A stretch of DNA of 32,000 nt from an uncultured archaeon (GTDB taxonomy: Archaea > Iainarchaeota > Iainarchaeia > Iainarchaeales > Iainarchaeaceae): the NCBI GenBank assembly GCA_964577555.1, contig CAZNZM010000002.1, positions 93,012-125,011 on the forward strand. Direction: 5' to 3'. This document shows, piece by piece, positions 2,706 through 31,217 of the stretch (its first letter is position 1; every line of letters begins with the position of its first letter). The notes under the pieces were generated by a model. That model was not told the origin of the DNA and did not search any database. It saw only the letters and a list, made by a program, of their open reading frames with translations. Made by a program: the position numbers and the translations under genes.

Positions 2706-2932
2706 TTTGTAAATTTTCTGTTTGTTTTTTTGTTTTGTTTTTTGCGAGCCAATTTTTTTTGTAAGTTTTTTTTAGTTTATGTTTTTTTTTGGAGATCTTT
2801 TTTTTGTCAAGCTGTTTTTTTTAGCAAGCCGTTTTTTTTTGTCATTTTTTTTTGAATTATTTTTTTTGTTTTGTTTTTGCGAGCTGTTTTTTTTGTCATT
2901 ATTTTTTTGTGTTTGTTTTTTTTTCAGTCATC
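2706..2932 (+). repeat. Intergenic T-tract / GCRAGCYR repeat array A
   Basis: T7-T10 runs separated by short cores: GCGAGCCA 2744, GTCAAGCTG 2806, AGCAAGCCG 2823, GCGAGCTG 2879. Module GTCA-T9-GAATTA-T8 at 2841-2868 recurs at 12465 and 28614. Confidence 0.7.
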
Positions 2933-2942
2933 ATTAAATATG
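2932..2942 (+). promoter_or_regulatory. Candidate TATA-like element (CATTAAATATG) about 26 nt upstream of ATG 2963; possible leaderless mRNA
   Basis: AT-rich box at the distance expected for an archaeal TATA box relative to a start at or near the ATG. No SD-like sequence in between. Confidence 0.3.
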
Positions 2943-4014: not shown

Positions 4015-5781
4015 ATGTTTAGGAGTGCGGTTTGCGGAAGCCTTTCAAGGGATAATATTGGGAAAAGTGTTGTTTTGGCTGGTTGGGTTGATAAGCAGCG
4101 TGATCATGGGGGTTTGTCATTTATTGATTTGAGGGATAGGTATGGTTATGTTCAGATTGTTGTTAATCCTGAAAAAGGTGGAAGGCTTGTTGATGTTGCA
4201 AAAAAGTTAAGAAGGGAGTATGTAATTAAAGTGTCTGGTGTTGTTAAGGCTAGGCCTAAAGGCACTGAGAATAAATCTTGGGTTACTGGGGATATAGAGG
4301 TTGAGGCTGATGATATTGAAATTATTTCTTCTTCTTTGCCTTTGCCAATAGAGTTTTCTGATAAGGCTCAATCAAATGAGGAGGCAAAGTTGACTTATAG
4401 GTATTTGGATTTGCGTAATAGGCAATTGCAGGCTAATTTGATTGCGCGTCATCGTATTGTTAAAATAGTCAGGGATTTTTATGATGAAAACGGTTTTATT
4501 GAAATAGAGACTCCTATTTTGGCAAAGAGCACTCCTGAAGGTGCCCGGGATTATTTGGTGCCTAGCAGGGTCAATCCTGGAAAATTTTTTGCCTTGCCTC
4601 AGAGTCCTCAGATTTTCAAGCAATTGTTGATGGTTGCGGGTTTTGACAAGTATATGCAAATTGCAAGGTGTTTTAGGGACGAGGATTTGCGGGCCGATAG
4701 GCAGCCAGAGTTTACGCAAATTGATGTTGAAATGAGTTTTGTTGATGAAGAGGATGTAATGAGTTTGCATGAAAAGTTGATTCAAAGAATTTTTATGGAT
4801 TTTATGGGTGTTGAGCTTGAAATTCCTTTTCCTCGCATGTCTTATGATGATGCAATTTCAAGGTATGGTATTGATAGGCCTGATACGCGGTTTGGTTTGG
4901 AATTGTTTGATTTGACTTCAATTCTTTCAAAAAGTGATTTTAATGTTTTTAAAAGCGTTGTAGCCGAAGGGGGTATTATTAAAGGTATTTGTATTCCTGG
5001 TGCTGGCTTTTCCAAGAGTGATATAAAAGGTTTTGAAGATTTCGTGAAAATTTATAAAGCCAAGGGGCTTGCGGCTTTGAAGGTTGTTGGAGGAAAGGTT
5101 GAGGGGCAATTGGCTAAATTCATTAGTGATTCTGTTGCAAGTGAGTTGGTTGCGAAAGCCAATGCCAAGGAAAATGATTTGATTTTGATTGTTGCAGGGG
5201 ATTCTAAGGTTGTTAATGATTCTTTGGGTTTTTTGAGAAATCATATTGCTGCCAAGCTTGGCTTGGTTGACAATAATAAGTGGAGTTTTGTTTGGGTGAC
5301 TTCTTTTCCAATGTTTGAGTGGAGTGATGAGGAGCAGAAGTTGAATGCAATGCATCATCCTTTTACTTCGCCGAAATCTGAGGATTTGCATTTGATTGAA
5401 ACCGAGCCTTTGAAAATCAGGGCGAAGGCTTATGATTTGGTTTTGAATGGTATTGAAATAGGCGGAGGCAGTATTAGGATACATGATCCTTCAATTCAAG
5501 CGAGGGTTTTCAAGGCTTTAGGGATTGATGAAAAAAGTGCAAAAGAGAAGTTTGGTTTTATGCTTGATGCATTTAAGTATGGTGCTCCTCCTCATGGCGG
5601 GATTGCTTTTGGGCTTGATAGGCTTGTGATGCTTTTGGTTGGTGCTTCAAGTATACGTGAAGTAATTGCTTTTCCAAAGAACAAGGCGGCTGTTTCTCTT
5701 ATGGATGGTTCGCCAAGCCAAGTGGATGAGAGGCAACTTAAGGAATTGCATATTAAGATTGACTTTGACAAGAAAAAATAA
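4015..5781 (+). CDS. aspS: Aspartyl-tRNA synthetase, bacterial type (long form with insertion domain)
   Basis: 588 aa. QSPQIFKQLLMVAGFDKYMQIARCFRDEDLRADRQPEFTQIDVEMSF is nearly the bacterial AspRS motif 2 region. C-terminal GGGSIRIH and PPHGGIAFGLDRLVMLL. Confidence 0.93.
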   Translation: MFRSAVCGSLSRDNIGKSVVLAGWVDKQRDHGGLSFIDLRDRYGYVQIVVNPEKGGRLVDVAKKLRREYVIKVSGVVKARPKGTENKSWVTGDIEVEADDIEIISSSLPLPIEFSDKAQSNEEAKLTYRYLDLRNRQLQANLIARHRIVKIVRDFYDENGFIEIETPILAKSTPEGARDYLVPSRVNPGKFFALPQSPQIFKQLLMVAGFDKYMQIARCFRDEDLRADRQPEFTQIDVEMSFVDEEDVMSLHEKLIQRIFMDFMGVELEIPFPRMSYDDAISRYGIDRPDTRFGLELFDLTSILSKSDFNVFKSVVAEGGIIKGICIPGAGFSKSDIKGFEDFVKIYKAKGLAALKVVGGKVEGQLAKFISDSVASELVAKANAKENDLILIVAGDSKVVNDSLGFLRNHIAAKLGLVDNNKWSFVWVTSFPMFEWSDEEQKLNAMHHPFTSPKSEDLHLIETEPLKIRAKAYDLVLNGIEIGGGSIRIHDPSIQARVFKALGIDEKSAKEKFGFMLDAFKYGAPPHGGIAFGLDRLVMLLVGASSIREVIAFPKNKAAVSLMDGSPSQVDERQLKELHIKIDFDKKK

Positions 5782-5909: not shown

Positions 5910-6206
5910 GTGCCAAGAATAAAGGTTGATGAGGTTTTGGTTAGAAAGGTTGCTGATAATGCGAGGCTTTCTCTTACTGATGCTGAAGTAAAAAAGTTTA
6001 TTCCGCAGCTTAACGAGGTTTTGGAGTATTTTTCAATGATTGATAAATTAGATGTTTCAAACGAAGAGCCTTCTTTTCAGCCTGTAAAGGTAAGGAATTC
6101 TTTGCGTGAGGATGTTGTAGGAAAGTGTCTTTCGCGGGAAGAGGCCTTGTCTAATACTCAGCATAAAAAGGGGTTTTATTTTAAGGGTCCAGGCGTGATG
6201 CAATGA
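5910..6206 (+). CDS. gatC: Asp/Glu-tRNA amidotransferase subunit C
   Basis: 98 aa of GatC size with the pattern VKKVA.LARL.L...E...F..QL..IL.Y....D. GTG start. Stop overlaps the gatA ATG (ATGA at 6203-6206). Confidence 0.8.
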   Translation: MPRIKVDEVLVRKVADNARLSLTDAEVKKFIPQLNEVLEYFSMIDKLDVSNEEPSFQPVKVRNSLREDVVGKCLSREEALSNTQHKKGFYFKGPGVMQ

Positions 6207-7615
6207 CTTATTCAGTAAGAGGTTTTGTTGAACGTGTTTCTTCTGGGGAAATTTCCGTTTTGGAGCATGCTGAAAAAATTTGTTCAGAAATTGAGGCGAA
6301 GAATAGAGAGTATTTTCATTTCAACAATTTTCAAAAGGATTATGTTATTTCTCAAGCCTTGTTGCTTGAAAAAGAAATAAAGAAAGGGCGCAGAGGAAAG
6401 TTGTTGGGTGTTCCGGTAAGTGTTAAAGATTGTCTTTGTGTAAAAGGGGTTGAATCCCGTGCAGGTTCAAAAATTCTTTCCGGTTATAAGCCTGTTTTTG
6501 ATGCTACTGCTGTTGCGAGGGCAAAGTATGAAGGTGCAATAATTCTTGGCAAAACTAGTCAGGATGAGTTTGGTTTTGGTACTTTTTCTATTCATCATAC
6601 TGCTGGCAATGTGCCACTTAATCCTTTTGATAAAAATAGAAGTTGTGGTGGAAGTTCTGGTGGTGCAGCTGGTTTTACGGCGCTTACTGAAAATACTCAT
6701 GTTGCCATTGCGGAAAGTACTGGTGGAAGCATTGCTTGTCCTGCTTCTTTTTGCGGCGTGTCTTCAATAACTCCGACTTATGGAGTTGTCTCAAGGTATG
6801 GTTTAATGGATTATGCATGTTCTCTTGATAAAATTGGCGCTATTGGAAAATCCATTGATGATGCTTCTTTGCTTTTGGAGGTAATGTCTGGAAAGGATGA
6901 AAAAGATAGTACTTCAGCGGATTTTAATTATTCTCCTGTTCAATTTTCAAAAATGAATATTGGGGTGCCGACCGAATTAATTGATTCTATTAAAAATGAG
7001 GGTATAAAAAAAGTTTTTTGGGAAAAGGTTTTGAAAGCCGAGGAATTTGGTTGTAAAATTTCAAATATTTCTCTTCCATTGAATGTCGAGTATGGGGTTG
7101 CTGTTTATTATCTTATTGCAATGTCTGAGGCTTCAACCAACCTTGCCAAGTATTGCGGCATGCGTTATGGGTTTTCAAAAAAACTTGTTGGAGATTTTAA
7201 TGAATACTTTTCTTCGGTTCGTTCTGATGCTTTTGGAGAAGAAGCAAAGAGAAGGATAATTATTGGGACTTTTGCCAGAATGTCGGGTTTTAGGGATGCT
7301 TATTATCTTAAAGCTATGAAGGTTCGTACGAAATTAATAAATGAATTTAAGCGTGTTTTTTCTGAAGTTGACCTTGTTGTTTCTCCCGCAATGCCTATTG
7401 TTGCTCCAAAATTTTCCGAAATAGAAAAGCTTAGTCCTTTGGAAAACTATGCTGCTGACCTTTGCACGGTTCCGCCAAATTTGGGTGGTTTTCCACATGT
7501 TACCACTAATGCTGGCGAATGTAATGGGCTTCCTGTTGGTTTTATGGCTATTGCTAATCATTTTGAGGATGCAAAAGCCGTTTCGTTTGTTTCCGCTTTG
7601 GAGGGTTTGTTGTGA
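6203..7615 (+). CDS. gatA: Asp/Glu-tRNA amidotransferase subunit A (amidase family)
   Basis: 470 aa. Amidase signature GGSSGGAAG..ALGTDTGGSIR-like (CGGSSGGAAGF...AESTGGSIACPASFCG). Confidence 0.92.
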   Translation: MTYSVRGFVERVSSGEISVLEHAEKICSEIEAKNREYFHFNNFQKDYVISQALLLEKEIKKGRRGKLLGVPVSVKDCLCVKGVESRAGSKILSGYKPVFDATAVARAKYEGAIILGKTSQDEFGFGTFSIHHTAGNVPLNPFDKNRSCGGSSGGAAGFTALTENTHVAIAESTGGSIACPASFCGVSSITPTYGVVSRYGLMDYACSLDKIGAIGKSIDDASLLLEVMSGKDEKDSTSADFNYSPVQFSKMNIGVPTELIDSIKNEGIKKVFWEKVLKAEEFGCKISNISLPLNVEYGVAVYYLIAMSEASTNLAKYCGMRYGFSKKLVGDFNEYFSSVRSDAFGEEAKRRIIIGTFARMSGFRDAYYLKAMKVRTKLINEFKRVFSEVDLVVSPAMPIVAPKFSEIEKLSPLENYAADLCTVPPNLGGFPHVTTNAGECNGLPVGFMAIANHFEDAKAVSFVSALEGLL

Positions 7616-8379
7616 AGGAGCTTGAGGTTGCGGAGCGTGCTGTTGTGGAAGCTGGAAAAATAGCTTGTAAGAATTTCCAGGGCGATTTTAAGATAAGTTT
7701 TAAGGGTTTGAGGGATCTTGTCACCGAAGTAGATGTTGAGTGTGAAAGAAAAATAAAAAGAATAATTTCTTCTGAGTATGCTACGCATTCTTTTCTTGGT
7801 GAAGAGGAAGGCTTGGTAGGAAGTTTTTCGTCTGTTTGGGTTATTGACCCTATTGATGGCACTACAAATTTTGCGCATGGCATTGATCATTTTTGTCATT
7901 CGGTAGCGCTTGTTAAGAATGGTGTTTTGGTTTGTGGTGCTATTTATAATCCGATTCAAAAGAAACTTTATTCTGCATATGTTGGTAAAGGAGCCAAATT
8001 TAATGGCAGGCCTATTTCAGTGTCAAAAACTTTAAATTTGTCAGATGCTTTGTTGATTACTGGGTTTCCTTATAATTCCAATCTTTTTGAAGTTAAAACT
8101 ATTCGTTCAATTTATTCTTTAAGGCCGCAGTGTAGGGATTTGAGGCGGTTTGGTTCTGCAGCTCTTGATTTTTGTTATGTTGCTCAAGGCTTGTGTGACG
8201 GTTTTTTTGAGTATCAGTTAAAGCCTTGGGATGTTGCTGCCGGAATTTTAATTGTGCGTGAGGCAGGTGGCAAAGTAACTGACATTAATGGTAAAGAGGC
8301 TGACATTAATTCGAGTCATTTTCTTGCAACTAATAGTATTTTGCACGATTCTATTTTGAGGCATTTGGAGGGTGTTTAA
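7612..8379 (+). CDS. suhB: Inositol monophosphatase family protein (archaeal IMPase/FBPase-like)
   Basis: 255 aa. Motifs FLGEEEG, WVIDPIDGTTNFAHG, GSAALDFCYVAQG and WDVAAG. GTG start overlaps the gatA stop (GTGA at 7612-7615). Confidence 0.85.
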   Translation: MKELEVAERAVVEAGKIACKNFQGDFKISFKGLRDLVTEVDVECERKIKRIISSEYATHSFLGEEEGLVGSFSSVWVIDPIDGTTNFAHGIDHFCHSVALVKNGVLVCGAIYNPIQKKLYSAYVGKGAKFNGRPISVSKTLNLSDALLITGFPYNSNLFEVKTIRSIYSLRPQCRDLRRFGSAALDFCYVAQGLCDGFFEYQLKPWDVAAGILIVREAGGKVTDINGKEADINSSHFLATNSILHDSILRHLEGV

Positions 8380-9750
8380 TTGGTTAAAATAGGTCTTGAA
8401 GTCCATGTGCAGCTTTCAACTTTGTCAAAGCTTTTTTGCCATTGTCCTGTTTCTGAAGCCGAGCCAAATTCTTTGGTTTGTGAAGTTTGTTTAGGCATGC
8501 CTGGTTCCAAGCCTGTTTTGAATAAAAAAGCGGTGGAGTATGCGATAATGCTTGCCAGTGCTTTGAATTGCAAAATTAATCGGGAATTTTTCTTTTCAAG
8601 GAAAATTTATTTTTATCCAGATCTTGCAAAAAATTATCAAATAACCCAGTATGAATCTCCAATAGGCGAGTCTGGGTTTATTGATGTTGATGGCGAGAAA
8701 ATAAGGATAAAAAGGGTTCATCTTGAAGAAGACCCTGCTTCTCTTATCCACGAGTCTAATACTGATTATTGTCTTGTGGACTACAATCGTTCAGGCGTGC
8801 CTCTTTGTGAAATTGTGACTGAGCCAGATATAAAAAGCCCGTTGCAGGCTCGTAAATTTTTGGACAAATTTCTTAATATTATTTCTTATTTAGGCATATA
8901 CGACCAATCAATCGGCGTTCTAAAAGTTGATTGCAATATTTCAATTGATGGTGGCGAGAGAGTCGAAATAAAAAACGTTACTGGTTTTAGGGCTGTTGAA
9001 GATGCTTTTGAAGCAGAGCTTCTTCGCCAAATTTCTGAAAAGAATGCTGGCAATAAAATAGAGCGGGAAACAAGGGGTTTTGATGCATCTTTGAAATCAA
9101 CTTATTCTTTGCGGAAAAAAGAAACTGAGGAGGATTATGGCTATATTTTTGATCCTGATTTGCCAAAAATTGAAATAAGCCAAGATTGGCTTGAAAAAAT
9201 CAAGGCAAGTATTCCAGAACTTCCAGAGCAAAAGGCTTTGCGTTTCATGAAACAGTATGGGCTTAAAGAATATGATGCCAAGGTTCTTGTTGGGGACAAA
9301 CTTATTTCTGAAATTTTTGAGGATTGTGCCAAAATAGATGTTAAAATAGCCACAAAAATAATTTCAAGAGAGCTTTTAGGTGTTTTGAATTATAATTCTT
9401 TGCAACTTTCTTCCACTAAAATAACTTCTTCAGGCATTGCTGGGTTAGTTAAACTTCTTTCTTTAGGAAAGGTAAGTGAAAAGAATGCTAAAGAGTCTTT
9501 AATCAAGTATGCTTTGGATGGGGTTGAACCTGAACATTATCTTTCTTCTAACAATTTGCTTATGGATTCTTCAGTTGTTGATATTTCTTCTGCCGTGAAA
9601 TCGGTTGTTGAAGAAAATAAATCGGCTTTTTCAGATTTCAAGTCTGGCAGTTCAAAGGCTTTGAATTTTTTAATAGGCGCGGTAATGAAAAAGTTGCGCG
9701 GCAAAGCCGATGCCAGAATAGTTCGAAAGGAAATTGAAAAATTTAAGTAG
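8380..9750 (+). CDS. gatB: Asp/Glu-tRNA amidotransferase subunit B
   Basis: 456 aa. N-terminal IGLEVHVQL and CEVCLGMPGSKPVLN. TTG start immediately follows the suhB TAA. SD GGAGGGTG at 8367-8374. Confidence 0.92.
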   Translation: MVKIGLEVHVQLSTLSKLFCHCPVSEAEPNSLVCEVCLGMPGSKPVLNKKAVEYAIMLASALNCKINREFFFSRKIYFYPDLAKNYQITQYESPIGESGFIDVDGEKIRIKRVHLEEDPASLIHESNTDYCLVDYNRSGVPLCEIVTEPDIKSPLQARKFLDKFLNIISYLGIYDQSIGVLKVDCNISIDGGERVEIKNVTGFRAVEDAFEAELLRQISEKNAGNKIERETRGFDASLKSTYSLRKKETEEDYGYIFDPDLPKIEISQDWLEKIKASIPELPEQKALRFMKQYGLKEYDAKVLVGDKLISEIFEDCAKIDVKIATKIISRELLGVLNYNSLQLSSTKITSSGIAGLVKLLSLGKVSEKNAKESLIKYALDGVEPEHYLSSNNLLMDSSVVDISSAVKSVVEENKSAFSDFKSGSSKALNFLIGAVMKKLRGKADARIVRKEIEKFK

Positions 9751-10271: not shown

Positions 10272-10519
10272 TAATTATTTTTTATTCTTATTTAGTTAAA
10301 AAACAAGCTTTTTTTTGTTTATTGTACCATAAATCATTTATAAATAAAAAACAGGAAAGTTATAGAAAAAGGAAAAAGTAAATTTCACCTCACACCTCCC
10401 TTTATTTTCTTTTTCCTTTTTTTTCTTTTTTTTTATTAAAATAAAGGAATTTAAAAGGCGTTTGTATTTTTTTATTATTGCCTTTGTTGGCTTTTTTTGA
10501 AGTCAGGGGGGTTTTTTTT

Positions 10520-12385: not shown

Positions 12386-12640
12386 GTGGTGTTTTTTTTT
12401 AAATTCAATTAAGACGATATTTTTTTTGTTTTTGATGTGTTTTTTTTGGCGAGCCGTTTTTTTTGAGTTTTTTTTTTGAATTATTTTTTTTGATTTTTGG
12501 TTTTTTTTAGTTGATTTTTTTGGTGAGCCGCTTTTTTGTCATTTTTCTTTTTTTTTGTTTGCAATTTTGTTTTTTTTGTTTTGTAAGCTATTTTTTTGAA
12601 TTATTTTTTGGTTTGAATTTTTTGTTGAGCTAAGTTTTTT
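12386..12640 (+). repeat. Intergenic T-tract / GCRAGCYR repeat array B
   Basis: Cores GGCGAGCCG 12448, GGTGAGCCG 12522, GTAAGCTA 12583, GTTGAGCTA 12624. GAATTA-T(n) modules at 12478 and 12598. Confidence 0.7.
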
Positions 12641-12643
12641 GTA

Positions 12644-12718
12644 TGGGCAAGGGCGGATTTGAACCGCCGACCGCGCGATTATCAGTCGCGTGCTCCAACC
12701 AGGCTAAGCTACTCGCCC
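12644..12718 (-). tRNA. tRNA-Ile (anticodon GAU), no intron, CCA not encoded
   Basis: The reverse complement folds as a cloverleaf. Acceptor GGGCGAG/CTTGCCC, anticodon arm CGCGA-CTGATAA-TCGCG, T arm GGCGG-TTCAAAT-CCGCC, discriminator A. Confidence 0.93.
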
Positions 12719-12792
12719 AAAATTTTGTTGTCACAGAATTTGTTTTTGCTGGCAAAACCTTTTAAAAGGTGCTAAAATCATTTTATTTTGCT

Positions 12793-13517: not shown

Positions 13518-13660
13518 AGCCCCATCGTCTAGTGGCTAAGGATACAGGCCTTTGGCGCAGCATTTTTTTGGAAATATGTTGGGAAATCAATAAGTTTTGT
13601 TTGTTTGATTTTTTGCTGCGAAGTGAGCCTGGGACCCCGGTTCGAATCCGGGTGGGGCTA
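13518..13660 (+). tRNA. tRNA-Gln (anticodon UUG) interrupted by a 70-nt intron at the canonical 37/38 position; CCA not encoded
   Basis: Acceptor AGCCCCA/TGGGGCT (A1-U72). Anticodon stem CAGGC/GCCTG with loop CTTTGG|..|A. T arm CCCGG-TTCGAAT-CCGGG. Confidence 0.9.
13556..13625 (+). other. tRNA-Gln intron with canonical hBHBh' splicing motif
   Basis: Central 4-bp helix CUUU/GAAG flanked by 3-nt bulges GG|C and UG|A. Outer helix GCAGCA/UGCUGC (13557-13562 with 13614-13619). Confidence 0.8.
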
Positions 13661-17502: not shown

Positions 17503-17711
17503 AAAATAAGTTTTTTTTGGCAAAATGTTATAAATTAATTACAATGTTGTTTTTTCTTTGTCTTTGTTTGTAAGTTGCAGAACTAATTTATAATTTGTTA
17601 TAAACCGACTTTAATAATTGAAATCTATTTTATAAAAAACATTGTTTAAAGGCGTTTTTTTGTGCAAATCATTAAATATTGCTTGGTTTTGAATTATTAT
17701 TTGGTTGTTTT

Positions 17712-17921
17712 ATGGGTTTTTTTGGGAATATTTTGGGTTTTGGAAAAGAAAAAAGTAGTGGGGAGAAAAAATTAGAAAGTAGTAAGGTTGAGTTTGAAGG
17801 CAAATATTCTGAAAAGTGCGTTGTTTGTGGCGAGGGTAATACCGAAAAAAAGTGGGCTGGGCAGTATTGGCATAAAAAATGTTTGCGCAAGGGTAAAAAA
17901 ATTGCAAAAGGCATGTTGTGA
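17712..17921 (+). CDS. Small zinc-binding protein (CxxC...HxxC knuckle, Lys-rich tail)
   Basis: CVVCGEGNTEKKWAGQYWHKKC. Short ORF with no family recognised. An alternative TTG start lies at 17679. Confidence 0.45.
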   Translation: MGFFGNILGFGKEKSSGEKKLESSKVEFEGKYSEKCVVCGEGNTEKKWAGQYWHKKCLRKGKKIAKGML

Positions 17922-17929
17922 AGCAAAGA

Positions 17930-18262
17930 TTTTTTTTGTTATTTTCATTTCTGGCTGAAACAAAATTCTTTTTTTTCTTTGGCTATCAAAGTTTTTTTTG
18001 GCTTGTTTTTGCTAGCCGTTTTTTTTAGGCAATTTTTTTTCATGTTTTTTTTGGACATTTTTTTTAATTTTTTTTGGCTAGCCGTTTTTTTAGATTATTT
18101 TTTTTGCTTGGTATTTTTTTTGTTTGAAATTTTGTTTTTTTTTGCGAGCCATTTTTTTTCGTTTTTGTGTTCTTATTTTTTTAGCCATTTATTTTTTTTG
18201 TAAGCCAAATTTTTTTATTTTTGAAATTTAATTTGTTTTTTCTTTGCTGTTTTTTTTATTTT
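17930..18262 (+). repeat. Intergenic T-tract / GCRAGCCR repeat array C
   Basis: Cores GCTAGCCG 18021, GGCTAGCCG 18077, GCGAGCCA 18144, TTAGCCA 18181, GTAAGCCA 18199. Module TGTTTGAAATTTTG-T9-GCGAGCC at 18121-18150. Confidence 0.7.
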
Positions 18263-18264
18263 TT

Positions 18265-20267: not shown

Positions 20268-22163
20268 TTACTTGAGTGCTTCGTTTATGTGTTTTTTTAG
20301 TATTTCACTTATTTCTTTTCCGCTTATTTTTCCTTTGAGTTGTTTCATTGCGTCTCCCATTAATGGACTTATAGCTCTTTCTTTTTGTTTTTTTATCATT
20401 TCAATATTGTTTTTTACGATTTCTTTTATTGTTTTTTCAGCTTCTTCGTGGCTTGTTTTTCCAGCGAGGTTTTCTAGTAGTATTTCGGTTTTTGTATCTG
20501 GGTTTTTTGCTTTCATTATTGTCAAATCTTTGAGTATTTCTTTGTGTGCTTTTCCTTTTTTGATTAGGTTGATTATTTCTGAGAGTGCGTTCTCGTTTAG
20601 TTCTTCAACTTTTTCTTCTTCTCTTTTTGCTTCGGTTAGTGTTTCAAGCAGGAAAACTGCTGTTTTTTTAGGGTCTGCTCCTTTTTCCACTTCTTTTTCG
20701 AATAATGGTGCAAAATTGCTTAGTTTCATTTCGTTTATGTGTTTTTCATTTAAACCCCATGTTTGGTATAATTTTATTCTCTCTGTTTCGCTTTTTGGCA
20801 TGTTTTCTTTTGCTTCTTCAATCATTTCTTGTGTTATTTCAATGCTTTCAAGGTCTGTTTCTGGGTACATTCTGGCGGCTCCCGGCAGGGGTCTTAGATA
20901 TTCTGTGTTTCCGCCTTCTAGTGCGCCTCTTGTTTCTTCTGGCACACCATCTAAGCATTGTATTGCTCTTTCAACTATTGCTTCTATTGCTGTTTTTGCT
21001 TTTTCTTCTTTTCCTACAACAAATGCAAATGCATCTTCTTTTTTGCATTCGAGTATTTTTGCTATTTCTTCTTTTTCTTTTTGTGTTATTCCGTAATTTG
21101 GCAGTTCGTCGCTGTGGAATATTCCTTTTAGTCCTGATTTTGTTTTGACTCTGTCTGCAAATTCTGTGCCTATCCTTCTGTTTGGTTGTATTTCAATTCC
21201 AAGTATGTTGTTGAATTTTGGGAGTTTTATTCCAATGATTCTTTCTTTATTTACTATTCCGTTTTTTATTATTTTTGATTCGCTTTTTGCAAGTGCTTCT
21301 TCTAAATATTTTGTTTCTGTTTTTATATCTTGTTTTTTGAGCCCTCTTTTTTCCAGTTCTTTTTTTGCTTCTATTAGTTTTGTTTGTCTTTGTGCTTCTC
21401 TTTTTACATATTCGTCGATTATTTCCAAGTCTTGTATGCCCTTTATTTCTACTCTGTTTCCTTCTTTTATTGATACATTTAAGTCTTGTCTTATTGTTCC
21501 AAGTCCTCTTTTTACTTTGCCTGTCAACCTGAATATCGTGCCTATTGCCTTTGCCGTTTCTTTTGCTTCTTCTGGCGTTTCTATTTCAGGTTCTGTTGCA
21601 AGTTCAATTAATGGTATTCCTAATCTGTCCAGTCTGTAATATATTTCTGTTTCGTTTTTTTTTATTGGCCTTGCGGCGTCTTCTTCTAGCACTATTGTTT
21701 GGATTCCTATTGTTTTGTTTTTTAGTTTTATTTCTCCTCCTGTTGCAAGAAGTGTTGTTCTTTGGAATCCTGATGTGTTTGATCCGTCTATTACCATTTT
21801 TCTCATTATAAATGTTTCTTCGATTGGTTGGCTTCCGAACATAATGGCTATTTGGAGTGCTATTTTTAGTGCTTCTTTGTCGATTGGTTGCGGTGGCTCT
21901 TCGTCGATTTCAACTAAGGATATTGTGTCTTTGTATCCTTCGTAAATGTATTTCATTGATTTTTTGAAGGCTTCAATTCCTGCTTTGTCTATTTCTCCTA
22001 ATTCTGATGAAACTATTCTGAGTTTTCTTTTTATTGTGAATTCGGGTTCGTCTTCTCTTAATTTGCTTGGCGTTCTTGAAAACAGTTTTCCTGTGTCTAT
22101 TTGTTGGTGGCATTCCAATCCGCACTTTAACCCTATTTTTTTGAAGTATGAATTATCCTCCAT
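20268..22163 (-). CDS. gatE: Glu-tRNA(Gln) amidotransferase subunit E
   Basis: 631 aa. GLKCGLECHQQI and GatB-like core with the archaeal-specific insertion. Lies in a co-directional run with gatD. Confidence 0.93.
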   Translation of the reverse strand: MEDNSYFKKIGLKCGLECHQQIDTGKLFSRTPSKLREDEPEFTIKRKLRIVSSELGEIDKAGIEAFKKSMKYIYEGYKDTISLVEIDEEPPQPIDKEALKIALQIAIMFGSQPIEETFIMRKMVIDGSNTSGFQRTTLLATGGEIKLKNKTIGIQTIVLEEDAARPIKKNETEIYYRLDRLGIPLIELATEPEIETPEEAKETAKAIGTIFRLTGKVKRGLGTIRQDLNVSIKEGNRVEIKGIQDLEIIDEYVKREAQRQTKLIEAKKELEKRGLKKQDIKTETKYLEEALAKSESKIIKNGIVNKERIIGIKLPKFNNILGIEIQPNRRIGTEFADRVKTKSGLKGIFHSDELPNYGITQKEKEEIAKILECKKEDAFAFVVGKEEKAKTAIEAIVERAIQCLDGVPEETRGALEGGNTEYLRPLPGAARMYPETDLESIEITQEMIEEAKENMPKSETERIKLYQTWGLNEKHINEMKLSNFAPLFEKEVEKGADPKKTAVFLLETLTEAKREEEKVEELNENALSEIINLIKKGKAHKEILKDLTIMKAKNPDTKTEILLENLAGKTSHEEAEKTIKEIVKNNIEMIKKQKERAISPLMGDAMKQLKGKISGKEISEILKKHINEALK

Positions 22164-22205
22164 TTTAAAATAAAAATTGCTTATATGATTTAAAAGTATT
22201 GTTTT

Positions 22206-22472
22206 TTATTTTTGCTTTTGCGGATAAATAAAATAGTTTGGTGTTTTTGAGATTTTTTTTAAAATTGAGTTAAAGTCATAATTTGGCACTCTTAGCCATG
22301 CTCTTTCATGCAAATAGAACAGTATTAGTTTTGTTATAAAGTCAACCAGTCCAAAGCCTATTGCAAGTTCGTGGTTGTTCGTGAATACAAAAAATGTTAG
22401 GCCTGTCACTGCTGATGCCAGTATTCTGAATGTTATTGCTTTCATAAGGCTTCTGGTTCTTGACTCTTTCAT
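22206..22472 (-). CDS. Small membrane protein, DUF2061-like
   Basis: 88 aa. RSLMKAITFRILASAVTGLTFFVFT and YLHERAW pattern. Confidence 0.6.
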   Translation of the reverse strand: MKESRTRSLMKAITFRILASAVTGLTFFVFTNNHELAIGFGLVDFITKLILFYLHERAWLRVPNYDFNSILKKISKTPNYFIYPQKQK

Positions 22473-22576
22473 ATTCTCGCCTGTTTTTATTTAATATTAG
22501 TTGCTTAAATATTTTTCTTTTGTCTTTTCGTAGTTTTTTTGGGCTAAAAATTTGTTTTTTTTATGCTGGTGTTTTT

Positions 22577-23908
22577 TTAGTCGTATCTTGTGAATTCGCT
22601 TATTTCGCCTCTAAGGTTTTTTGTTATAAGTTTTTTGGCTTCGTTTGGCGGATAATTTCCTAATAGCCATGATAGTTTTACGAGTGCTGTTTCTGGTAGC
22701 ATGTCTTCTCCGGAAATTACGCCCAGGTTTGCTATGTCTATTCCTTTGTCGTACACGTGCATTTGTACTCTTCCGTAAACTGTGTTTGTTGTCATTATTG
22801 CTATTCCGCCGTTGTCAATAAACTTTTTGAGTGCGGGGAATATTTTTCGGTGTATTGCAGTGTATTCGTTTGGATCGTGTCCAGGAATATGCCCCAATCC
22901 TGTGCCTTCTATTACGAGTCCTTTGTATTTTTTTTCGTGGAAGAATTCAAATTGTTCCGGAAACATGTTTACATGTGCTTTTAGCAGTCCAACTTTTTCT
23001 TCAAAGTTTGGTTTTATTATCATGTTTTCTTCTGTTCTTTTTGAGTAATTTTTCTTTATGAATTCTATTTTTTTTGTTTCGTAGTCTATGTATGCTATTG
23101 GCGTGTCGTTTATTGGTTTGAATGCATCTCTTCTTGAGGAGTGCAGTTTTTTTGTTTTGCATGCAGGTAGTATTGCGCATTTGTCGTCTGAGCTTGAATT
23201 GTGCATACAGATGGCGACTCCTGCAAAGTCGCTTTGCGCAATGAATTGTGCGGCGCAAATTAGGTTCATTGCAGCATCGGAACTGCCTCTGTCGGAGCTG
23301 CGTTGTGAACCTACAAGGATTATTGGGATTGGGCATTTTTCAATTGCAAAGGATAGCCCTGCTGATGCAACCGCAAGGTTGTCAGTGCCTATTCCTATTA
23401 TGATTCCTTTCACTCCTGTTTCGTATTCTTTTTTTGCTTCTTTTGCTAGTATTTCTATGTGTTTGAATCTTAAATCGTCGGACCACATTTTTGTAATTAG
23501 TTTTGATGTGAAGTTTCCTATTTCCATTAGTTCTGGAAACATTGTGAGAAGGTCTTCTGGTTCGAAGCTTGTTTCGATTCCGCCTGTTCTGTAATCTACC
23601 CGTCCTGCTATTGTGCCTCCTGTGTGTAATATTGCTATTTTTGGAAGTTTTGGGTTTTGTTTTATTTCTTTTTTTTCTGCTTTGGCAGGTTTTTTTATAT
23701 CTTCAAGTTTTTTTATTTCAAGTTTTTCGCTAATTTTGATCCCTATGTTGTATCCTGATTTTAGTTTTAGCCTTATAATGTTTTTTTTGTTTGTTAGAAT
23801 GGGAAGTAAATATCCTGTTAGTTCTTGTTTTCCTTTTTTTATTGAAACTAGTTGCCCTTCTGAAAGGCCGTATTTGTCGTATAATTCTTGTGTTTCCATT
23901 TTTTTCAC
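22577..23908 (-). CDS. gatD: Glu-tRNA(Gln) amidotransferase subunit D (asparaginase-like)
   Basis: 443 aa. ILHTGGTIAG (asparaginase Thr motif), GIGTDNLAVAS and GSQRSSDRGSSDA. Confidence 0.93.
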   Translation of the reverse strand: MKKMETQELYDKYGLSEGQLVSIKKGKQELTGYLLPILTNKKNIIRLKLKSGYNIGIKISEKLEIKKLEDIKKPAKAEKKEIKQNPKLPKIAILHTGGTIAGRVDYRTGGIETSFEPEDLLTMFPELMEIGNFTSKLITKMWSDDLRFKHIEILAKEAKKEYETGVKGIIIGIGTDNLAVASAGLSFAIEKCPIPIILVGSQRSSDRGSSDAAMNLICAAQFIAQSDFAGVAICMHNSSSDDKCAILPACKTKKLHSSRRDAFKPINDTPIAYIDYETKKIEFIKKNYSKRTEENMIIKPNFEEKVGLLKAHVNMFPEQFEFFHEKKYKGLVIEGTGLGHIPGHDPNEYTAIHRKIFPALKKFIDNGGIAIMTTNTVYGRVQMHVYDKGIDIANLGVISGEDMLPETALVKLSWLLGNYPPNEAKKLITKNLRGEISEFTRYD

Positions 23909-28250: not shown

Positions 28251-28261
28251 ATATAAATTTT

Positions 28262-28812
28262 ATTTTTTGGTATTTAAAAGTCGTTTGTTTAAGTTTTTTA
28301 TGGGTTTTTTTTTGCTTTTTTTGTTATTTTTTTTAGCCATTATTTTTAGAGGGTTTTTTTTGGGGTTGTTTTTTTAATTTTGTTTTTTTTGTCTTTGTTT
28401 TTTTTGTTGTTTGCTTTTTAAGTCAATTTATTTTTTAGATGTTTTTTTAATCATTTTTTTGGGTATTTTTTTTATTTTTTTTAATTGTTTTTTTTGGCGA
28501 GCCGTTTTTTTTGTTATTTTTTTTTGTTTGTTTTTGCAAGCCTTTTTTTTGTTTTTTTTGTGGCTTGGTTTTTTTTGTTTGAAATTTTGTTTTTTTGCAA
28601 GCCAATTTTTTTTGTCATTTTTTTTTGAATTATTTTTTTGTTTTTTTTTGTTGTTTTTTTTGTCGAGCCAATTTTTTTGTTATTATTTTTTTTGTTTTTT
28701 TTAATTGAATTTTGTTTTTTTGTAAGTCATTTTTTTCTTATTTTTTTTGGTTGTTTTTTTTGTGTTTTTGTTTTTGTGAGCCGTTTTTTTTAGTATTTTT
28801 TTTATTGTTTTG
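28262..28812 (+). repeat. Intergenic T-tract / GCRAGCCR repeat array D (largest)
   Basis: Cores TTAGCCA 28333, GGCGAGCCG 28496, GCAAGCC 28536, GCAAGCCA 28597, GTCGAGCCA 28662, GTAAGTCA 28722, GTGAGCCG 28776, each followed by T7-T9. Contains copies of modules seen in arrays A, B and C. Confidence 0.75.
28271..28280 (-). promoter_or_regulatory. Candidate TATA box (minus strand CTTTTAAATA) about 25 nt upstream of ATG 28250; possible leaderless transcript
   Basis: Position relative to the start codon fits archaeal TATA-to-TSS spacing. Similar TTTAAAAG boxes occur at 10453, 12760 and 26275. Confidence 0.3.
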
Positions 28813-28814
28813 GC

Positions 28815-31130: not shown

Positions 31131-31217
31131 AAAAATCAAATGTTATTTTATTAACAATTAAATTTTTATTATTAATTATTAATAAAATTTTCAAAAATTG
31201 TAATATTAGTGGTTTTT

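Follow-up and report, generated by a model that had tools for sequence, protein, structure and literature searches.

Why should several intergenic gaps in one archaeal chromosome be filled with runs of T that always lie on the same strand, whichever way the neighboring genes point? The question is raised by a 32,000-nucleotide (nt) stretch of DNA from an uncultured archaeon of the Iainarchaeaceae (contig CAZNZM010000002.1), called here the window, and above all by positions 28251-28814, a gap between an 85-aa gene and a DNA ligase gene. From the letters alone, this gap and three others (2706-2932, 12386-12640 and 17930-18262) had been described as arrays of T-runs punctuated by short G+C cores, with possible roles as an oriented chromosomal motif, as chromatin-excluding or bending DNA, as a block to antisense transcription, or as a non-coding RNA (ncRNA) locus (the original prediction). 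The four gaps exist as described, their coordinates, composition and flanks having been rechecked. In the reading that we favor, with about even confidence, the arrays are a lineage-specific, fast-turning-over, non-coding, satellite-like family of tandem repeats in the intergenic spacers of an Iainarchaeum-like DPANN archaeon. The arrays as a feature are real and far beyond chance. The analysis covers joined loci of 48.6 kb (window coordinates -7966 to 40668), which are part of a 149-kb contig in which the window occupies about 90-122 kb; two further arrays lie to the right of the window, giving six (A-F).

The arrays consist of T (.62-.68), A (.12-.20), G (.12-.17) and C (.05-.09); for the four arrays of the window alone, the ranges are T.64-.68, A.12-.15, G.13-.17 and C.05-.09. 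A repeat unit of ~55-67 nt runs from a G-Y-R-A-G-C-C-R core through T8 (a run of eight T), GTYA, T9, GAATTA and T8 and onward. The words that stand between the T-runs, which are mostly eight T long, are G-[C/T]-[G/A/T]-A-G-C-[C/T]-[G/A]; GTCA or GTTA; GAATTA; and GTTTGAAATTTTG. About 20 cores had been estimated by eye, and 19 of the form NNNAGC[C/T], all flanked by T-runs, are counted in the first four arrays; GGCGAGCCG-T8, cited as a shared example, is found at both 12448 and 28496. The interval between cores, given as 20-75 nt, in fact ranges over 15-165 nt, its values bunching at 55-67 nt, and Tandem Repeats Finder (TRF) reports periods of 54-66 with 72-82% matches. Thus, the arrays are degenerate tandem repeats with a unit of ~60 nt, made, like minisatellites, of recognizably similar head-to-tail units within the range of ~10-100 bp. 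The T-tracts themselves are spaced at a median of 16 nt, mostly 11-17 nt. The arrays and their parts are as follows.

Array A, 2706..2935, plus strand: flanking genes +/+ (the fibrillarin stop, then a beta-CASP/RMMBL gene); 12 T7+ runs; cores at 2744, 2807, 2824 and 2879; TRF period 54.
Array B, 12386..12642, plus strand: flanking genes -/-, upstream of a rhomboid gene (minus) and downstream of tRNA-Ile (minus); cores at 12449, 12523, 12583 and 12625.
tRNA-Ile(GAU), 12643..12719, minus strand: borders array B.
Array C, 17927..18264, plus strand: flanking genes +/-, a small Zn-ribbon open reading frame (ORF; plus, end 17921) and a cupin gene (minus, stop 18265); a 66-nt tandem duplication at 18011-18143; cores at 18011, 18077, 18144, 18180 and 18200.
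Gap D, 28251-28814: flanking genes -/-, the 85-aa gene and DNA ligase.
Promoter-proximal segment of the 85-aa gene, 28251..28320, minus strand: a TTTAAATA-like box on the minus strand, read by eye.
Array D, the repeat proper, 28321..28814, plus strand: downstream of DNA ligase (minus); about 30 T7-9 runs; cores at 28332, 28497, 28536, 28597, 28663 and 28776.
Best-preserved module, 28597..28641, plus strand: GCAAGCCAA-T8-GTCA-T9-GAATTA-T7.
Array E, 33654-33943, right of the window: flanking genes -/-.
Array F, 39408-40043, right of the window: flanking genes divergent.

Together the arrays make up about 5% of the 48.6 kb and about 30% of the intergenic DNA there. Gap D, described as filled by one array, is repetitive from 28321 to 28814; its first ~70 nt (28251-28320) are a conserved, non-repeat promoter region of the 85-aa gene and the sole part of the gap that aligns with a sister species. 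The absence of terminal inverted repeats and unique spacers stands as claimed, whereas the claimed absence of ORFs does not: a mechanical 97-aa ORF (28411-28704, plus strand) and small called ORFs are present in the arrays. These are of low complexity, and the array sequence that holds them gives no alignment with the sister species. Within array F, a module GTGATTTTA-T9-ATTTAAAATTGTTTTGTC-T8-G(T)GGCTTG is duplicated ~235 nt apart (39562-39900 equivalent; ~770-1110 of locus L002), and the sister arrays hold a related module, ...AAAA-T6-GTC-T8.

The excess of these words was measured against 500 dinucleotide-preserving shuffles of the six arrays. The arrays contain 110 T7-9 runs (38.4 +/- 5.4 in shuffles), 24 occurrences of YRAGCY (1.65), 22 of AGCC (1.9), and 156 12-mers common to different arrays (9.7), and none of the 500 shuffles reached the observed T7-9, core or shared-12-mer counts. 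The recurrence of cores and modules is therefore far above what dinucleotide composition yields, and the shared 12-mers bear out the proposal that the arrays are one family. In the opposite direction, T10+ runs number 1 against 30 +/- 3.4 in shuffles, each of which had at least one. Across all intergenic DNA of the 48.6 kb, runs of 3 to 10 T number 161, 99, 72, 41, 57, 94, 28 and 1, a bimodal distribution, and homopolymers of at least 11 are absent from the 48.6 kb, coding DNA included, and from the relatives L001 and L127. Of 111 T7+ runs, 76 are followed by G. The words are also strand-specific: AGCC occurs 22 times and GGCT 9, GTCA 13 times (1.7 expected) and TGAC never, GAATTA 6 times and TAATTC never. 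A unit often finds its best match in another array. For example, 2824-2868 of array A and 28597-28641 of array D are nearly identical (alignment score 37/45) at a distance of 25.8 kb; since these modules are closer than the neutral DNA of the window and sister species, recent movement between loci is indicated.

An assembly artefact is ruled out because four independent assemblies carry the identical sequence. The window is reproduced letter for letter by Joint Genome Institute (JGI) contigs from three metagenomes and by Logan contigs, and the array sequence is the same throughout, with no length variation within that population. Logan short-read contigs stop inside arrays A and D, where the spanning assemblies agree base for base; thus, the repeats break assemblies, and they systematically fragment metagenome-assembled genomes (MAGs) of this lineage. 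Short-read contigs from several samples (L003 and L005, from Logan, and L128 and L129) end 90-180 nt into arrays A or D.

What, then, sets the polarity of the arrays? The T-rich strand is the plus strand whatever the orientation of the flanking genes, which had been correctly assigned for arrays A-D, and arrays E and F extend the pattern to divergent flanks. The strand lock had been taken as a possible orientation signal; however, all neutral sites of the stretch share it. At fourfold-degenerate sites, plus-strand genes have 1596 T and 452 A (plus-strand AT skew -0.56) and minus-strand genes have, on the sense strand, 1404 A and 348 T (plus-strand AT skew -0.60), with a plus-strand GC skew of +0.14 and +0.23, respectively. 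T thus outnumbers A by ~3.5-4:1 on the plus strand, and plus-strand genes favor NNT codons, minus-strand genes NNA. The fourfold-site composition (T.60, A.17, G.13, C.10) is nearly that of the arrays, and a second, independent, cruder gene caller returns the same asymmetry. Over the 48.6 kb, genes included, T7+ runs number 324 and A7+ runs 25, and the strand rich in T is rich in G over its whole length. The uniform polarity of the arrays follows because unconstrained plus-strand sites are already ~60% T. Array polarity is the polarity of all neutral DNA in the stretch, and the arrays are not singled out by it.

The fourfold skew has the same sign for genes of both strands, as in replication-type asymmetry. 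Since it is locked to the strand and independent of gene orientation, it bears the classical signature of replication, to which we infer it is tied. It recurs in the sister species L127 (fourfold AT skew -0.47/-0.64) and in the more distant L001 (-0.76/-0.74), and is weak or absent in L130 and L131, relatives of higher GC content (45-52% GC) that have no arrays. In a complete Diapherotrite genome, an origin-to-terminus GC skew adjoins cdc6 (PMC5905446). The literature yielded no account of extreme skew in Iainarchaeia. To our knowledge, an asymmetry of this strength has not been reported in archaea.

From these patterns a three-step origin can be proposed. In the first step, the extreme chromosome-strand bias would drive unconstrained plus-strand sites to ~60-65% T; this bias is itself observed, and the plus strand would owe it to replication, having the G+T-rich composition of a leading strand. 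In the second step, spacer T-runs, whose lengths show the pattern directly, would grow by biased substitution and slippage to ~8-9 nt, at which point slippage or contraction, or selection, would halt their growth, leaving a mode at T8 and almost no T10+ runs. Model fitting places a slippage threshold near 8 nt (PMC2997547), and a balance between T-biased substitution and length-dependent slippage is a plausible, though not demonstrated, cause of the T8 mode and of the ceiling at 9-10. In the third step, whole units would duplicate in tandem, and modules may be copied among arrays by ectopic recombination or template switching. Uniform polarity would then be a by-product of the strand bias and carry no signal. 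Plus-strand transcripts would meet many U-tracts and should terminate, and minus-strand transcripts would read an unstructured, A-rich spacer.

Comparison with the sister species at three loci shows how fast the arrays turn over. The ligase and a GTPase are 96-97% identical as proteins, and divergence at fourfold sites is 25-31%. Downstream of the ligase, the 564 nt of the window correspond to 853 nt in the sister, rearranged and built of the same words, with GGCGAGCCG-T8 present three times. The spacer downstream of a Zip gene measures ~130 nt in the window and ~390 nt in the sister. Array C, 338 nt in the window, is replaced in the sister by a ~55-nt spacer with three T-runs, and the extra ~280 nt of the window falls between two T-runs of the shared spacer. 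Thus, length and copy number vary among close relatives at D, at C and at the Zip spacer, as they do in minisatellites. The sister arrays have the same traits, with AGCC found 13 times (1.5 expected), a single T10+ run (13.4 expected) and a T-run mode of 7-8. On whether arrays are conserved in close relatives, the outcome is accordingly divided: the grammar and some positions are kept, whereas sizes change several-fold and array C is missing. Beside array C, the small plus-strand ORF at 17679-17921 encodes ~70 aa from an internal ATG, with a zinc-ribbon-like CVVC...HKKC motif, and is conserved at 83% nucleotide identity in the sister locus L259; the overlapping minus-strand ORF at 17672-17926 is spurious.

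Relatives whose ligase is 71-73% identical have either a real gene of 182-189 aa or a 21-nt gap at the D locus. The gene, of normal composition, lies at the position of array D in L130 (6212-6760) and L131 (11852-12421), both of 73% ligase identity, and has no Pfam family on record. L001 has neither this gene nor an array at the D locus. A decayed 182-189-aa gene as the source of array D is rejected, as tblastn gives no residual similarity. Beyond these relatives, a metagenome scan for the pattern AGCCRN{0,2}T7N{3,12}T7G gave single chance matches, probably bacterial-terminator-like, and among the matches listed none of 80 loci belongs to the array family. In viral contigs, a core-specific pattern gave 7 single chance matches and no viral link; the generic pattern (T7G)x3 is common in giant-virus contigs and hence uninformative.

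The movement of modules and the change in array C could also reflect a propagating selfish element, in which GCGAGCC-T8 is the recognition site of an enzyme, for instance an HUH/RAYT-like transposase, nuclease or recombinase, by which units are copied into the T-runs of the lagging-strand template. Copying of this kind would also fix the orientation, and it would suit a core consensus that holds from species to species amid rearranged surroundings, modules that are nearly identical at a distance of 25 kb, and the location of the ~280 nt added in array C, which are enclosed by two T-runs of the ancestral spacer. Elements of the IS200/IS605 type are known to insert strand-specifically at the replication fork. 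However, the arrays show neither terminal inverted repeats nor hairpins, and neither target duplications nor discrete ends of units; no transposase is among the recorded Pfam matches of genes across the 48.6 kb, solo copies are absent outside the arrays, and no match to the family was found in viral contigs. We regard this explanation as unlikely. Repeats of the miniature inverted-repeat transposable element (MITE) and repetitive extragenic palindromic (REP) types were rejected as candidates, there being no terminal inverted repeats, hairpin or discrete ends. On our own reading, a GGCTTG partner exists for only 4 of ~44 cores.

Several observations weigh against a repeat family shaped by strand bias, slippage and duplication. 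The core is built of A and C, the rarest plus-strand bases, and still both species have it in 10- to 20-fold excess, with one and the same consensus although neutral sites have diverged by ~30%. Neutral decay alone should have worn such a core away; its persistence requires either continual re-amplification or selection. T-runs break off very abruptly in length (1 T10+ run against 30), and there is a strong preference for G after a run (76/111). In L001 the strand bias is stronger still and 14 kb of sequence hold no arrays, so that bias by itself is not enough to produce them. Finally, the skew does not switch within the 48.6 kb, so that the link to replication, and an array flip predicted at such a switch, stay at the level of inference. 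The conserved core and the sharp T-run ceiling keep functional rivals alive.

One such rival concerns transcription. Plus-strand genes nearly always carry T6-9 directly after the stop codon. Minus-strand genes have A5-A8 on the sense strand after the stop and almost never T-runs (e.g., downstream of 16309, 18265, 19399, 28815 and 33114), and, as judged by sequence, they are almost throughout without canonical archaeal U-tract terminators. Oligo-T on the sense strand just downstream of a gene, the mark of such a terminator, is present at array A and the left edge of C and absent at B, D and E, where there is no plus-strand gene to terminate and the flanking minus-strand genes see A-runs. As originally argued, termination of the neighboring genes fails to explain B and D, both of whose flanks are on the minus strand. 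For transcripts from the ligase gene, the spacer would be 500 nt of unstructured, A-rich sequence. In Methanococcus maripaludis, the efficacy of termination grows with the number of U4-tracts, aCPSF1 binds two U-tracts, and single terminators are leaky, at a median of 30-55% (PMC8716108). Since more U-tracts give stronger termination, plus-strand transcripts that enter an array should stop. A single tract is no absolute barrier, however, since T7 and T6 lie inside the intron of a plus-strand tRNA gene. This gene (13518-13660; Rfam 45.3 bits) has a 73-nt intron in its anticodon loop and was missed by ARAGORN and by a gathering-threshold Rfam scan. A second tRNA-like gene at ~32530-32700 (~7970-8140 of L002), seen by eye only and without confirmation from Rfam or ARAGORN, has T8-GGCTTG in an apparent intron. 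A scan for hairpins followed by T gave 5 sites (13.5 expected), none of them in the arrays, so that hairpin terminators are ruled out there.

Thus, it is possible, if on the whole unlikely, that the arrays are selected polar transcription insulators, in which stacked U-tract terminators act with aCPSF1/FttA to halt plus-strand transcription, including antisense transcription into minus-strand genes. That the minus strand at the same time offers a long, unstructured, untranslated spacer for factor-dependent termination is an equally tentative part of this idea. The T6-9 runs right after the stops of nearly all plus-strand genes suit it, as do the placement of array A and the left edge of C exactly at plus-strand gene 3' ends, the M. 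maripaludis data on tract number, leakiness and aCPSF1 binding, and the absence of structure on both strands. Runs of 7-9 T, moreover, match a full rU:dA hybrid. However, B, D and E lie between minus-strand genes, and the plus-strand genes closest to them are already equipped with a T8 past the stop codon; 10 to 30 tracts are far above what termination needs; array C is dispensable in the sister species; single tracts are read through in the tRNA intron; and the conserved core is left unexplained. If the arrays are instead a satellite-like repeat family, polar termination on the plus strand is likely a side effect of them, and they are probably tolerated, or mildly useful as polar insulators, and non-essential.

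The density of the tracts, one T7-9 tract per ~16 bp, and the restriction of such dense tracts to intergenic DNA raise the further idea that the arrays are poly(dA:dT) spacers that exclude histones or chromatin and hold the DNA between genes open. It is established for eukaryotes that poly(dA:dT) disfavors histone wrapping, and the footprint of an archaeal histone tetramer is close to the ~60-bp unit length. Because the properties of the duplex are strand-independent, polarity would here again be set by mutation bias. The idea seems quite unlikely to us. There is no helical phasing; many promoters lie outside arrays, and that of the 85-aa gene sits beside the repeat, not within it; the promoter-bearing gaps at 10272-10477 and 31131-31217 are A/T-balanced and without arrays; arrays have been gained and lost between sister species; and again the core is left unexplained. 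The bending arrays that had been suggested fare no better, as each of the six arrays has a Fourier power of ~0 at 10.5 bp, and this lack of periodicity excludes phased A-tract bending.

In favor of a role in replication, the T-rich strand is the G-rich one over all 48.6 kb, which by the usual rule makes it the lagging-strand template. The primase of the DPANN archaeon Nanoarchaeum equitans primes at central-T triplets and stops at about 9 nt (PMC10250227), behavior that accords with priming on these tracts. In the arrays, GTC follows many tracts, and GTCA is in marked excess over expectation. GTC is also the triplet recognized by primases of the phage T7 type. There is a slim chance that the arrays are selected, replication-oriented elements, with the GCGAGCC core and fixed T7-9 forming a protein-recognized module of the lagging-strand template that serves as a priming or fork platform or as the target of a strand-specific copying enzyme. 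Under this reading, each tract could template a ~9-nt oligo(A) primer, and the T-run ceiling could be a molecular ruler rather than a slippage equilibrium. We consider very unlikely the related proposal of lagging-strand-template priming platforms, in which a T7-9 tract yields an oligo(A) primer, or of a polarity signal like Chi or the FtsK-orienting polar sequences (KOPS). T-runs are abundant everywhere on the plus strand, so that dedicated arrays would be unnecessary; the core is neither dispersed nor skewed outside the arrays; arrays are dispensable at individual loci; and L001 has the bias and no arrays. We know of no FtsK/KOPS or RecBCD/Chi systems in archaea. The analogy with Chi or KOPS, a candidate role in the original prediction, is rejected on the counts as well: a motif of that kind is a dispersed, skewed oligomer that is also present in coding DNA, whereas GYRAGCCR occurs outside the arrays 2 times on the plus strand and 4 times on the minus strand in about 46 kb, neither enriched nor skewed. 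Confinement to the arrays thus makes the core unlike Chi or KOPS.

The regular size of the tandem units, 55-67 nt, might finally suggest an A-rich or U-rich ncRNA locus or a decayed array like a clustered regularly interspaced short palindromic repeat (CRISPR) locus, either of which we hold to be highly improbable. In the window, Rfam matches tRNA only. Array D folds no better than its shuffles on either strand (z = -0.07 on the plus strand and -1.31 on the minus strand), which makes a structured ncRNA unlikely, and plus-strand transcripts should terminate at the first tracts. Identical repeats, unique spacers and cas genes are all missing. CRISPR itself is ruled out, in that the sole conserved word is 7-8 nt long, where a CRISPR array has near-identical repeats of 24-48 nt and unique spacers of like length, the 'spacers' share GTCA and GAATTA, and the flanking genes have no cas domains.

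The genes of the window are archaeal and include Nop56 and fibrillarin, GatCAB, GatDE, diphthamide synthase, an ATP-dependent DNA ligase and a YchF-type GTPase. The sole GTDB-representative match of the ligase is a Candidatus Iainarchaeum MAG (71% identity), and many protein matches of window genes carry the label Diapherotrites. Related DNA ligases (P0015, P0100 and P0111) include some of ~957-960 aa with an intein and LAGLIDADG domains. A bacterial-type aspartyl-tRNA synthetase with a GAD insertion adjoins GatC, GatA, an inositol monophosphatase-family gene and GatB, in that order (4015-5781 and 5910-9750), and the genes for the archaeal GatD and GatE follow 10-18 kb downstream of where GatB ends (20268-23899); both amidotransferase systems are thus present.

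If the arrays are the satellite-like family that we favor, a previously undescribed repeat fills a sizeable share of a supposedly streamlined DPANN genome. Neutral sites that are ~60-75% T on one strand would entail strand-specific codon usage and minus-strand genes nearly without U-tract terminators, and replication-linked mutation bias in archaea would become directly measurable. Background composition accounts for the most eye-catching property of the arrays, and any one array can be dispensed with; should the neutral reading hold, a polarity shared with the background does not by itself point to a chromosomal signal. Two anomalies stand out in the numbers, the abrupt limit on T-run length and the conserved core with its C, and these could be traced either to slippage dynamics or to a protein.

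How do the arrays compare with known systems? The literature gave no description of such arrays in Iainarchaeia or of an archaeal element of like structure, in agreement with the original prediction. With REP and bacterial interspersed mosaic element (BIME) families and with MITEs, they have in common short, clustered intergenic repeats copied between loci, but they lack a palindromic hairpin, inverted termini, target duplication and discrete units, and no RAYT or other transposase is seen nearby. With Chi, KOPS and architecture-imparting sequences they share a short oligomer in one orientation over tens of kb; unlike these, the core is restricted to intergenic arrays and is not dispersed through genes. 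Archaeal U-tract terminators, which work through aCPSF1/FttA (PMC8716108), likewise have runs of at least 4 T on the non-template strand, several in a row, and array A and the left edge of C stand, as they do, directly after plus-strand genes. However, arrays have 10-30 tracts where terminators have 1-3, they contain a conserved core word, and half of them lie between minus-strand genes, with the T-tracts on the antisense strand.

Replication strand asymmetry, seen as GC skew in Ca. Forterrea (PMC5905446) and as strand disparity in Ch65 of the candidate phyla radiation (CPR) (PMC7143001), resembles the present case in that one strand has more G than C and more T than A whichever way the genes run, that fourfold sites show the excess, and that relatives share it. 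It accounts for the polarity and composition of the arrays but not for their repeat grammar, and the present case differs from it in magnitude and in the lack of a skew switch within 48.6 kb. Leading strands are G+T-rich in Borrelia-type genomes, and fourfold AT skews are usually far weaker than the -0.55 to -0.76 found here. The prokaryotic minisatellites, or variable-number tandem repeat (VNTR)-like loci, are similar in having degenerate, head-to-tail, non-coding units of tens of bp, several-fold changes in copy number among close relatives, modules shared between loci, and breaks in assemblies. The arrays differ in consisting almost wholly of T7-9 runs with a hard length ceiling, in carrying one conserved 7-8-nt, C-containing core per unit, and in having a single polarity at all loci. 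Dispersed tandem intergenic repeats and oligo-T tracts are each already known, and it is the composition, polarity and grammar of the arrays that are new.

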